A DNA stretch of 64,000 nt from a virus (IMGVR_UViG_3300007770_000001), one strand, 5' to 3'. Shown: positions 53,866 to 57,553, counted from the first letter of the stretch. Numbers and translations: made by a program. Notes: generated by a model from the sequence alone, not told the origin.

Positions 53866-54012
53866 ATGAAACCGCAACTCGTGCAGCGCCAAGTCGTATC
53901 CACCGGAGGTCTGCAGAAGGCCCGGTTTGGGATCTCCGACCGCACCAAGGCCCGTGTCTTCCGGATTCTGCGGAGTGCTCTACACAGGGTGTCTGTCCTG
54001 GAAGGAAGCTAA
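53866..54012 (+). pseudogene. Orphaned original 5' end of rIIA (39 homologous codons, 48-aa ORF)
   Basis: MKPQLVQRQVVSTGGLQKARFGISDRTKARVFRILRSAL aligns ungapped to rIIA aa 1-39 with 19 identities. Confidence 0.85.
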
Positions 54013-55068
54013 TCTTTCGGGGTCGAATGGCTTTTCGACCAAAGGCCAGTCTTCTTTTTGGAATATCCTCAGATCCACTTTATGCTCACCCAGTACCTTG
54101 TGCATTTTGGCTTTGGCTTCTTCTGGGAAATATCCCTTGACCTCTATGTAGATACCAAATGTTGGAATATAGAAGTCAGGCGTGTATCTCCGGTGTCCTG
54201 CGTAGCAGAGACTATGTCGTTCCCATAAGACTCCGCAACGGTGAAGCCATTCAGCGACCCGTTTCTCCCAAGTCCCTTGGACAAGGGATATGGTGTCCCC
54301 GTTCTGGACCTCATACCAAATACACCGGTTCTTGTAGTTGTTTCCCACCATGCGTTTGGAGTGGAACTCCCGGATGGGGGTGCTCCTCGGTGAGGCATAG
54401 AATTCTCTCAAAGATGCTATACGTTTTCTCTCAGAGATGGCTCGCTTTTCTGAGAATGCGGGCCCCATGCGCTTGGCGTTCCAGTCCTGGAGGTTAGCCC
54501 GGGCGGTCGTCCGAGCTGTTTCTGAACGAGCACTCTGCCAAAATTCTAAGGTCCCCTTGAGGAGTCGGTTCCTGACCTGCTCTTTTTGCTCGGGAGAATA
54601 CCGTTCCCACTGTCTCCTGGCTTGCTCCCGGAGACGTACTCTCTCCCGTTCCCGTTCTTCTGGCGTCATGGCTGCACGCCGGGCTTTCTTCCCTTCCCGT
54701 AGGGGTCTCATGTACTCTTCGATTTCTTGGGGAGATCTCTGATCCCAGCGTTCTTGATTCCCTCGAAGAAGCTGTTGGAGGACCCGTTCTTGATCTTCCC
54801 CGCCACAGGCCCATTGGTGCTTCGCTGAGCAACTACTCGAACAGTATTTGGAGTTGGTTGTATCCTTCCCACATCTGAAGCAAGCCTTCAAACGCTTTAT
54901 TCTACCGTGGTTCCTCTGGCACTCCTGGGAGCAAAAGGCGATCCGGTTCGCATGCTGGGTGCCGCACTCAAGGCAATCCTTGACCTGTTCAGGGTGCCTG
55001 TCAATTTTCCGGCACTTCCCAGAGCAATAAAGAACTCCTGCTCTTGAGGTGGCTCCCCCGCAAACCAC
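53980..55068 (-). CDS. PD-(D/E)XK putative homing endonuclease with repeated CxxC-YCSxxC Zn motifs
   Basis: QGTWE...YTPDFYIP...YIEVKG; frame stays open and Zn-repeat-coding up to 55185 without a canonical start. Confidence 0.82.
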   Translation of the reverse strand: MVCGGATSRAGVLYCSGKCRKIDRHPEQVKDCLECGTQHANRIAFCSQECQRNHGRIKRLKACFRCGKDTTNSKYCSSSCSAKHQWACGGEDQERVLQQLLRGNQERWDQRSPQEIEEYMRPLREGKKARRAAMTPEERERERVRLREQARRQWERYSPEQKEQVRNRLLKGTLEFWQSARSETARTTARANLQDWNAKRMGPAFSEKRAISERKRIASLREFYASPRSTPIREFHSKRMVGNNYKNRCIWYEVQNGDTISLVQGTWEKRVAEWLHRCGVLWERHSLCYAGHRRYTPDFYIPTFGIYIEVKGYFPEEAKAKMHKVLGEHKVDLRIFQKEDWPLVEKPFDPERLASFQDRHPV

Positions 55069-55333
55069 GCAAAAGGATCTCCGAGGGGGTTTCCTGGCAG
55101 GGTCTTTTTGGAGGCATTTTCGGGAACAGTAAGGGGTCCCTCTTCCGCGGCTGTGGGGTTTTGAGCAGATGATACAAGTTTTACTTCAAAACCGTAAATA
55201 AGGTTGAGGACTGCCTATGCGAACTCACAGGACCCAAAGAAAAATAGTCCGAAAAGGCGGGCTTCAGACAGCAGGGTTTGGGATCCGTTCCCAAGGAACC
55301 GCGAAAATCTTCCGTATCCTCAGGGATTTCCTA
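53983..55333. mobile_element. Inferred endonuclease cassette carrying a replacement rIIA 5' end
   Basis: Lies between two copies of rIIA codons 1-39; AT-rich with atypical codons. Confidence 0.72.
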
Positions 55334-57553
55334 TACGGAGACAAGATACTCGCAGTATTGCGAGAGATCGGAGGGAACGCATGGGACTCCCACCGAGCCG
55401 CTGGGAAGCCGGATCTCCCGATACGGGTGGTCCTCCCCACGAGCCTGGAGCCGTCACTGGTCATCCGGGACTGGGGTCCCGGGCTCCGTGCAGGAGATCC
55501 TGACGAACCAGAGGAAGTCCGTGACCTCCTCGGTCCCAGCGTGTTCGGGACCTTCATCTGGTACGGGGACACCACCAAGGACGAGACCGACGAAGAGGTA
55601 GGCTCCTTCGGCATCGGCGCCAAGTCCCCGTTCGCATACAACGACAGCTTCTCTGTGGCCAGCTGGCATGGTGGTCTCCGTTGCGTCTACAGCGCAATGT
55701 TGGACGAGTCGGACGAGGGAGAGATGACTCTCTTCCACATGGCGGCTCTCGGAGAGCACATCGAGAGCTTCCTTGAGAGCAAGGAGATCCCGGTCTTCTT
55801 GCCTGCCAATGAGTGGGTGGGCCTCTCTACAGTCCCCGACCTGGAAGGACTCAAGGACGAGTTCATCGAGTGGCTTCGCGCCAAGGGGCTGGTATCTGAT
55901 TTTGAGACGGGGCTCGAGGTCAAGGTCCCGGTGGTACCCTCGGATTCCATCAAGTTCCACAACACAGCACGGGACCTCTTCCGCTACTTCGAGCCCCAGC
56001 CCGACATCAACGTCAAGCTCAAGCCCGCCGTCTACGCCTTTGAGAACGAAAACGGCGGGTTTGTTCGGGAGTCCCCTGATTGGACCTTGGTCATGGGCTG
56101 CATCCCGTACCGTGTCCGAGAGTCACGCATCCTCCCTTTCATCGGAGATGAGTACAAGTCCGCTTTCCGCACCCGTGGGGGGATTCTCCGCTGCGACATC
56201 GGAGAGGTATCGGTCACCGCCAGTCGCGAGGATCTCGAGTACACGGAACGCACCGTCGAGGCTGTTGTTCGCAGGTTCACCCTCCTGTGCCAGGCGGCCA
56301 TGCGTGACCTTGTCAGCAAGGTCACCAAGAGCTCCACGACTGATTGGGAGAAGCGGATCAGCGTCTTGGCTCTCCCGAAGGGTCTCCCTCTCCCTCCGGA
56401 GTTGGCGTCCCTCAATGAGGACAGGATCAAGATCTTCCGGAATAGGAAATCCTACGGCACCGCCCTTCCTGTCTTCCCGGCCCTGTACAACTTGCGCCGG
56501 CCTGTTCGGACCTACGGGAAATGGTCTCACCTGGATGATGCATTCTCCCTCCCCGTCAGCTCGAATACCCGTATCCTGATCAAGGACACCCACCACACTT
56601 GGCGTGGGTACGCTGCATCCACGTACGACCGGATCGTAATGCCAAAGCGGAGGGCTGACGTGGACGCAGCCGAGGCGCACATCAGGGATCTTCTCGAAAA
56701 GAAGGGGATGTCCGGAGTCCCAATCCTCAGGATGAGCTCCCTCGAGTTTACTCCTCCGGACCCGGCCAAGAAGGCGGCCATCGATACCCAGGCCCAGCAC
56801 AAGGCCAAGGTCCTCTCCTTGAAGGAGGACTTCGAGGATAGCAGGCCCCGCCAGAGGTCCTCCTACTGGGATGCGGCTGAGGTCGTCCTCTCTGCTGACG
56901 ATGTGTACGTGTTGACCCACCGGTTCCGTGCGGTGTCCCCAGGGCCTGTCGCCGACCCGGACACTCCGGAGAGCCTTCGGAACGGCTTCTTCGTCGAGAT
57001 CGAAGCGTTGCGGAGTCTGTTCCGGAACCTCAAGGTTCCGTTCCCCAAGATCTACGGGATCAAGAACCCCAAGGCCGATCGCTCGAAGATCCCTGCGAAG
57101 CCCTACGCAGAGTGGAAGATCGAGGCCCTCCTTCACCTGTTCAGGACCCATCCGGAACTGAAGGATTTCATCAAGTGGGCTCGCTTCAGTTCTGTCTCCA
57201 CGTACTCCTACTGCTCCTCGTATTCGGATCGAGAGATGTTGGGCCCCACCCACAGGTTCCTCGTCGAACAACTGGGGCCGGACCACGAGATCACCAAGTT
57301 CGCCGAACACCTCTGGAAAGCTCAAGAGCACACGCTCCATACCGGATACGTGGGCTGGGCTCTCTCGCTTCTTGAGGCCGCAGGACACACCCCAGCGATG
57401 GATCCGGCCGCTCTCCGAGACGACATCATCAAACGGTATCCGTTGCTCGGCGGAAAGCGCGATAGGAACTACCTGGGCATGTTCCGTTCCCGTGGGGAAC
57501 GAGAGCATTGGGTCCAGTACGTCAAGCTCATGGATACGCAGAGGAAGTCATGA
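55217..57553 (+). CDS. rIIA: rIIA-like protein (GHKL/HSP90-like ATPase N-domain)
   Basis: LREIGGNAWDSH, IRDWGPGL, YGDTTK, GSFGIGAKSPFAY. Confidence 0.88.
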   Translation: MRTHRTQRKIVRKGGLQTAGFGIRSQGTAKIFRILRDFLYGDKILAVLREIGGNAWDSHRAAGKPDLPIRVVLPTSLEPSLVIRDWGPGLRAGDPDEPEEVRDLLGPSVFGTFIWYGDTTKDETDEEVGSFGIGAKSPFAYNDSFSVASWHGGLRCVYSAMLDESDEGEMTLFHMAALGEHIESFLESKEIPVFLPANEWVGLSTVPDLEGLKDEFIEWLRAKGLVSDFETGLEVKVPVVPSDSIKFHNTARDLFRYFEPQPDINVKLKPAVYAFENENGGFVRESPDWTLVMGCIPYRVRESRILPFIGDEYKSAFRTRGGILRCDIGEVSVTASREDLEYTERTVEAVVRRFTLLCQAAMRDLVSKVTKSSTTDWEKRISVLALPKGLPLPPELASLNEDRIKIFRNRKSYGTALPVFPALYNLRRPVRTYGKWSHLDDAFSLPVSSNTRILIKDTHHTWRGYAASTYDRIVMPKRRADVDAAEAHIRDLLEKKGMSGVPILRMSSLEFTPPDPAKKAAIDTQAQHKAKVLSLKEDFEDSRPRQRSSYWDAAEVVLSADDVYVLTHRFRAVSPGPVADPDTPESLRNGFFVEIEALRSLFRNLKVPFPKIYGIKNPKADRSKIPAKPYAEWKIEALLHLFRTHPELKDFIKWARFSSVSTYSYCSSYSDREMLGPTHRFLVEQLGPDHEITKFAEHLWKAQEHTLHTGYVGWALSLLEAAGHTPAMDPAALRDDIIKRYPLLGGKRDRNYLGMFRSRGEREHWVQYVKLMDTQRKS

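Follow-up and report, generated by a model that had tools for sequence, protein, structure and literature searches.

The stretch of DNA analyzed here, 64,000 nucleotides (nt) of the virus IMGVR_UViG_3300007770_000001 and referred to below as the window, contains an rIIA gene with an endonuclease gene set into its 5′ end on the opposite strand. The codons with which rIIA begins occur twice at this locus, once at the head of the present gene and once on the far side of the endonuclease gene, in a short open reading frame (ORF). We describe the organization of the locus and argue that the segment separating the native start from the rest of rIIA is likely to be a foreign mobile cassette which brought a substitute start with it. 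The features, with coordinates counted from the first nucleotide of the window, are as follows.

53866-54012, plus strand: orphan ORF of 48 amino acids (aa)
53866-53982, plus strand: putative orphaned native rIIA codons 1-39; the frame stays open across the antisense of the endonuclease 3′ end, as far as the stop codon at 54010-54012
53980-55068, minus strand: free-standing endonuclease gene, 362 aa, GTG start; predicted Cys-rich N-terminus, possibly Zn-finger-like, helical basic linker and C-terminal T7-endonuclease-I-like PD-(D/E)xK domain
55069-55216, no strand assigned: spacer of 148 nt between the diverging endonuclease and rIIA starts, from reading of the sequence
55217-57553, plus strand: whole rIIA ORF, 778 aa
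55217-55363, plus strand: putative xenologous rIIA 5′ segment, now the head of the gene; codons 1 to probably ~49, the right edge being uncertain between codon 39 and ~60
55364-57553, plus strand: native body of rIIA, codon ~50 to 778
57550-58836, plus strand: rIIB (context), overlapping the rIIA stop codon; phrog_609, E 7e-52

The 778-aa protein gives a full-length profile match to phrog_612 'RIIA lysis inhibitor' (E 6e-81), and its gene is directly followed on the 3′ side by rIIB, to which PF26926 is assigned in the gene tables of L001 and L002; the profile match and the adjoining rIIB together place the protein in the rIIA family. The locus is borne by 16 metagenome contigs of up to 339 kb, and the phage is therefore an uncultured marine jumbo phage. 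Across ~53950-55350 the GC content falls from 0.61 to 0.45-0.55.

A preliminary description of this DNA had reported that the ORF at 53866-54012 aligns without gaps to rIIA residues 1-39, and this was confirmed. In BLASTP the 48-codon ORF and the rIIA start share 20 of 45 residues in an ungapped alignment (E 7e-11), and over the homologous first 39 residues the identity is 19/39, as had been stated. The rIIA N-terminus was represented by a hidden Markov model (HMM) of alignment positions 1-39 in 56 further rIIA proteins. The orphan obtained 52.1 bits with this model and the N-terminus now in use 39.9 bits; both values are far beyond chance, since 400 shuffled controls reached no more than 6 bits. 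The similarity of the orphan to rIIA stops at Leu39, whose codon, CTA (53980-53982), becomes on the opposite strand the TAG stop of the endonuclease gene, so that the coincidence of the two boundaries pointed out earlier holds. Beyond this position the rIIA family reads Y-x-x-K-x-L-A-V-L-R-E and the orphan reads H-R-V-S-V-L-E-G-S-stop, a tail which is the antisense of the endonuclease gene 3′ end. Because homologues of the minus-strand protein stop at, or shortly past, the residue aligned with His360, the insertion junction can be placed within ~53983-53988. The ATG of the orphan lies 1 base past the stop codon of the upstream native gene, a ribosome-binding site is present, and its GC content at third codon positions (GC3) is 0.69. 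No further copies of the endonuclease or of the orphan fragment were found in the window.

The two copies of the rIIA start differ strikingly in codon usage. Codon adaptation was expressed as mean ln w with 26 native genes as the reference, which range from -0.50 to -0.26. Codons 1-39 of the present rIIA have a mean ln w of -0.94, below every native 39-codon window and below all 26 native gene starts. The orphan has -0.60, which corresponds to the 2.4th percentile of native windows and lies inside the range of native gene 5′ ends, and the body of rIIA is native in its usage (-0.38). The endonuclease gene (-0.77) falls outside the range of the native genes; its GC content is 0.53 and its GC3 0.58, against ~0.61 and 0.76 for the genome. 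Similarly, GC3 of the rIIA 5′ segment is ~0.5 in comparison with 0.76 for the whole gene. The endonuclease gene and rIIA codons 1 to ~49 thus have an atypical, lower-GC codon usage in common. A codon-bias plot had been proposed as a check of the preliminary description, and its outcome, that the current N-terminus shares the foreign usage of the endonuclease gene, agrees with it. On this evidence the nuclease gene and the substitute rIIA start are judged to be of foreign origin.

The new start had been said to use rare codons up to about position 55460. The rarity is real (AGA makes up 4.2% of Arg codons, ATA 3.7% of Ile and CTA 2.3% of Leu, with shares of 9% for TTG, 10% for GTA and 15% for CGA), but the tract ends earlier, near codon 49 (~55363). 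It is at this codon (range 47-52) that native usage resumes according to a two-mean change-point analysis; codons 40-60 taken alone are statistically indistinguishable from native ones. At positions 40-50 the three nearest relatives read 'YK.K..AVERE' and the current rIIA has the wider-family form 'YGDK..AVLRE', and from residue 59 it is identical to the nearest relative P0002 ('HRAAGKPDLPI'). Nucleotide identity to the relative L006 is 16/30 in codons 40-49 and reaches 35/45 in codons 61-75. The foreign tract can with confidence be assigned to rIIA codons 1-39 and probably reaches ~codon 49; native codons 40 to ~49 would then have been overwritten.

Which of the two copies is the native one can be judged from the relatives. 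The orphan is closer to 43 of 60 rIIA homologues and the current N-terminus to 9. In comparison with P0002 the orphan shares 20/39 residues and the current N-terminus 14/39, and at the DNA level the identities to L006 are 66/117 and 51/117 nt, respectively. We therefore take the orphan to be the native rIIA start, left stranded upstream, and the current start to be the foreign one. Between themselves the copies share 61/117 nt (52%) and only 14/39 third codon positions, and the same codon is used at 7 of the 19 residues identical between them. In the preliminary description the new start was called recoded; it is indeed a diverged 5′ end, but the term is misleading, since 20/39 residues differ and third positions are saturated, which is not what a synonymous rewrite would look like. 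The orphan scores as a typical member of the rIIA family and is without signs of decay. Saturated third positions together with an undecayed orphan imply that the copies come from different lineages and were brought together recently. The new start accordingly appears to be a homologous segment from another lineage, neither a recent duplication nor a synonymous recoding.

The 362-aa protein encoded on the minus strand is a predicted T7-endonuclease-I-like PD-(D/E)xK nuclease and looks intact. A profile of this protein and 12 homologues matches structures of T7 endonuclease I (PF05367; PDB 1M0D, 1FZR, 2PFJ) with E 9e-12, so that the nuclease domains are homologous by profile, and the protein itself matches phrog_945 and phrog_9019 with E 5e-11. 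The conserved catalytic set E/D/ExK (E268, D298, E309 and K311) is invariant in 13 homologues, all of which match PF05367 at a sub-threshold or weak level. Residues 250-362 of the AlphaFold (AF2) model have predicted local distance difference test (pLDDT) values >90. Foldseek matches were weak (E >0.01), the top ones being mostly PD-(D/E)xK nucleases, including the homing endonuclease I-Bth0305I. T7 endonuclease I itself is a Holliday-junction resolvase of ~150 aa without a DNA-targeting extension; in contrast, the protein of the rIIA locus has ~250 extra N-terminal residues and its gene behaves as an inserted foreign element. The first ~90 residues contain three CxxC...(F/Y)CSxxC modules which might be Zn-finger-like, a resemblance to be treated as a lead only. 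NUMOD3 motifs, which are typical of homing endonucleases, are present in 2 of the 13 relatives. An enzyme with a Zn-finger-like N-terminus and an endonuclease-I-like nuclease would represent a poorly characterized architecture, and its target is predictable from the junction.

The gene lies outside any recognizable intron or intein. No Rfam family matched at E ≤1 across 53500-55800, and a group I or group II intron or another RNA element was rejected for this reason; as the endonuclease is antisense to rIIA, it cannot be an intein either. What is found at the locus is, in these terms, a candidate homing endonuclease of the free-standing kind: a nuclease domain with intact catalytic residues in an intact ORF of 362 aa.

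The 148-nt spacer between the diverging genes had been described as AT-rich. This applies to its last ~55 nt, the rIIA-proximal third (~42% GC), but not to the spacer as a whole, which has 50% GC. A GAGGA ribosome-binding site is situated in it 6 nt before the rIIA ATG. The cassette had also been credited with a promoter of its own, a claim for which we found no support: the single sigma-70-like match in the spacer is on the minus strand (55198-55169), oriented towards the endonuclease gene, and a single match does not exceed the expectation from shuffled sequence. Neither the sigma-70 scan nor the terminator scan gave anything above that expectation, and no recurring motif was found that would be a promoter motif common to the spacer and other intergenic regions. 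A terminator-like hairpin followed by a T-run is located on the plus strand at 54028-54058 of the window, 16 nt past the stop codon of the orphan and within the antisense endonuclease gene; the number of such sites is not above shuffled expectation. If functional, this hairpin would block read-through from the upstream operon and make rIIA rely on a start signal in the spacer.

The contigs of the nearest relatives are syntenic with the locus in the order polA, SprT-like gene, small genes, rIIA, rIIB and baseplate. The endonuclease is absent from two of them, L006 and the contig of P0004, which are syntenic but distant, and a single rIIA N-terminus is present there (by tblastn at the DNA level in L006, by the gene table only in the P0004 contig). 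The alignment to endonuclease-free relatives for which the preliminary description had called thus shows a single N-terminus that the orphan matches better, and the proposal withstands the refutation it had itself named, with the limit that only distant relatives could be used. The short N-terminus of P0047 was considered as a second case of an interrupted rIIA and rejected, as there is no endonuclease there; the missing part was located by tblastn just upstream of the called start 'MTILRD' (L007:3914-4042), and the gene start was probably mis-called. The rIIA homologues P0013 (1158 aa) and P0043 (1094 aa) carry the intein-type domains PF14528 LAGLIDADG_3 and PF13403 Hint_2, from which it follows that selfish elements have entered rIIA in more ways than one.

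Taken together, these results support what had been proposed in outline, namely that rIIA harbours a free-standing endonuclease cassette, not borne by an intron, which left the native 5′ end an orphan and supplied another in its place; the comparison with relatives, the codon usage and the lack of intron RNA all point the same way. The cassette, of foreign origin and lower GC content, extends from ~53983 to ~55363. Three parts make it up: the antisense endonuclease gene, the 148-nt spacer, in which the ribosome-binding site lies, and ~49 initial codons from the rIIA of another lineage. Insertion after codon 39 severed the native start, of which an intact 39-codon orphan remains directly behind the upstream native gene, and the rIIA start of the cassette now heads the gene, in frame with the native body and giving a full-length product. 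We consider it likely that the cassette is mobile and was established by homing. The endonuclease would cut uninterrupted rIIA alleles near codon 39/40, and the break would be repaired from a cassette-bearing genome, with the orphan and the upstream gene as the left arm and rIIA from ~codon 50 as the right arm. Such repair would copy the cassette in, native codons 40 to ~49 being overwritten by co-conversion. As neither copy would recreate the original target, the invaded genome should be immune to further cutting, and the 52% DNA identity between the copies would prevent the cassette from recombining out. The cassette itself probably goes back to a donor phage that had an endonuclease gene upstream of its rIIA: this gene and the donor rIIA start would have been copied into a cut recipient by a one-sided illegitimate join.

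Several observations weigh against this reading. The available relatives are distant, the nearest rIIA proteins being 34-36% identical, and no endonuclease-free sibling was encountered: wherever the 16 contigs encoding this very rIIA were read, the cassette was present. Contigs from 4 runs belonging to 2 studies do not differ anywhere in 53000-56500 and no joints were seen in them; rare variants can go unseen in contigs. A plus-strand promoter was not detected in the spacer by the sigma-70 scan, and the right boundary of the foreign tract past codon 39 is not statistically resolved. The single-sequence Pfam score of the nuclease for Phage_endo_I (PF05367) is 22.8 bits, below the gathering score of 29.1, the profile-to-PDB match being strong. 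Neither a donor nor a second copy of the cassette was found in the databases searched, and its mobility as a unit is therefore putative. As for the donor of the new N-terminus, a word-based search with residues 1-60 returned only the protein itself, and in an exhaustive phmmer search of 1.84 billion representative proteins the best hit was 51% identical along 49 aa; neither copy, when searched as a degenerate DNA pattern, had a match in viral or metagenome contigs, and no close DNA relatives were found among cultured phages by blastn. Homologues of the endonuclease share the nuclease domain only, and at 79 IMG/VR viral loci with endonuclease relatives there was no rIIA or rIIB in the vicinity and no counterpart of the N-terminal region.

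The absence of a donor and of a second copy, the lack of rIIA near any of these 79 loci and the membership of the nuclease domain in the family of a junction resolvase would all suit a one-off horizontal transfer, in which illegitimate recombination introduced a foreign patch made up of a nuclease gene and the rIIA start beside it. In that case the nuclease, which may be resolvase-like or defence-related, would not be directed at rIIA and the arrangement would be a frozen accident. We regard this as unlikely, because a conserved ORF has been broken precisely and restored in frame, as selection on a homing element would produce, and because both homology arms needed for homing are present. Moreover, the enzyme has a long Cys-rich N-terminal extension and relatives that carry NUMOD3, and the same phage has a second endonuclease with a similar start-duplication design, described below.

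Two further histories start from the fact that both copies are genuine, collinear and ungapped rIIA N-termini. The phage could have duplicated its own rIIA 5′ end in tandem, the copies diverging until an endonuclease landed between them. This is very improbable, as the saturation of third positions (14/39) would demand an old duplication whose unused orphan should by now be degenerate, whereas its score is that of an ordinary member of the family; the foreign codon usage of the endonuclease is seen in the downstream copy, and no tandem duplication is found in the syntenic relatives, so that this explanation was already disfavoured. Alternatively, the roles may be reversed, the current N-terminus being native and the 39-codon fragment having arrived with the endonuclease gene, for which the position of the orphan at only the 2.4th percentile of native windows (mean ln w -0.60) could be cited. 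We give this almost no credence. The orphan adjoins the native upstream gene with a 1-nt spacer, has a GC3 of 0.69 and is nearer to the syntenic clade, and it is the current N-terminus whose codon usage lies outside the native range, as that of the endonuclease gene does, and which is contiguous with that gene.

Of the known systems, the closest analogue of the cassette in rIIA is the gene hybrid formed by mobile ORFs (mORFs) of fungal mitochondria, described for atp6 of Allomyces macrogynus and for atp6, atp9, cox2 and nad3 of Glomus sp. (PMC3630166). The comparison with fungal mitochondria made in the preliminary description therefore refers to a documented phenomenon. In these hybrids the endonuclease ORF brings a foreign C-terminus and the native one is displaced (PMC3630166). 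Common to both is an intron-less endonuclease inside a protein gene, accompanied by a foreign gene end that takes over, whereas the displaced native end is unused and groups with relatives and the inserted copy is divergent. At the rIIA locus this pattern is borne out by codon usage, by identity to homologues, by the HMM scores and by nucleotide identity to L006. The differences are also clear. The mORFs replace the C-terminus and encode LAGLIDADG or GIY-YIG enzymes; as a rule they run in the direction of the host gene, and often they are in its reading frame. None of these features of mitochondrial mORFs is found in the rIIA cassette, in which the N-terminus is replaced, the enzyme is antisense, endonuclease-I-like and of the PD-(D/E)xK type, and the host is a phage. 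Since it is the N-terminus that is replaced, the rIIA cassette must supply translation start signals too.

Among phages, MobE in nrdA of Aeh1 and MobA in the topoisomerase gene 39/60 of T4 are free-standing endonucleases that split an ORF into two required halves (PMC2988022). With the MobA element 64 nt of the target are lost, and an element-borne homologous region (HomR) containing the nick site takes their place (bioRxiv 10.1101/2022.08.31.505936). The rIIA cassette resembles them as a free-standing phage endonuclease located inside an ORF and neither in an intron nor in an intein, and it resembles MobA in that the element carries a resistant substitute for the target. However, in the MobA and MobE systems, whose enzymes belong to the HNH and not the PD-(D/E)xK type, the halves reassemble and tails have been added to them, in the MobA case along with a bypass cassette. 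The upstream piece of rIIA is instead made redundant by a complete substitute 5′ end: codons 1-39 are fully duplicated and the downstream rIIA is full-length (778 aa), so that two required polypeptides are not what the locus encodes. The Seg and Mob endonucleases of T4 (SegF, SegG, SegB, MobE) perform intronless homing with co-conversion (PMC2988022). An endonuclease gene of atypical composition in or beside a conserved gene, with a flanking donor tract carried along, is what the rIIA locus shares with them; the classical Seg and Mob cases lie between genes, with both neighbours intact and no orphaned gene fragment, unlike the rIIA cassette.

Survival of an inserted nuclease gene by means of a substitute gene end is known from fungal mitochondria and has rarely been documented in phages; in a limited search of the open-access literature we found no phage description of an orphaned start combined with a replacement start. 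To our knowledge, homing endonucleases are thought to persist in genes only by means of introns or inteins or by splitting the gene into two working halves. The rIIA locus would represent a third route in phage, in which the element carries a substitute gene start. It may also account for some of the short unannotated gene-start fragments beside nuclease genes, and it shows that distant phages can trade the 5′ ends of their genes, by which phylogenies and annotation may be led astray.

The window contains a second endonuclease gene accompanied by a duplicated gene start. It is an ORF of 288 aa (31043-31909, GC 0.53) encoding a GIY-YIG endonuclease with NUMOD3, and its first 17 codons are a second copy of those with which the gene behind it (31909-37248, 1779 aa) begins, 14/17 aa and 39/51 nt being identical. 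The endonuclease is co-oriented with the 1779-aa gene, which restarts by means of a TAATG overlap, and it appears to have taken over the original start of its host gene. With this second case in mind we put forward, tentatively and as a possibility that we rate below even, that start-replacing homing cassettes are a general, so far unnamed strategy in phages. If this is true, the endonuclease gene travels with a divergent copy of the 5′ end of its target gene and with translation start signals, and such a cassette can for that reason live in essential ORFs without an intron or intein. It would leave orphaned native starts as footprints and swap gene starts between distant phage lineages, and the presence of two unrelated endonucleases (PD-(D/E)xK and GIY-YIG) of this design in a single jumbo phage would be a first sign that the strategy is common.

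A flank-duplication screen of 69 viral loci with relatives of the endonuclease revealed only DNA repeats, for example a duplicated tRNA-like repeat in L017; replacement of a gene end was not seen again. In L017 (3479-5729) two endonuclease-I-like paralogues of 260 and 280 aa are arranged in tandem. Behind each lies a copy of a 91-nt repeat; the copies are 96% identical and resemble the 3′ portion of a tRNA (GGTTCRAGTCC...). The arrangement recalls that of SegB in the tRNA cluster of T4, the target gene being present twice in L017. Beside the two endonuclease loci, the sole other low-GC island in the 64 kb is located at 40241-40340 of the window (GC 0.46), between converging or diverging small ORFs.

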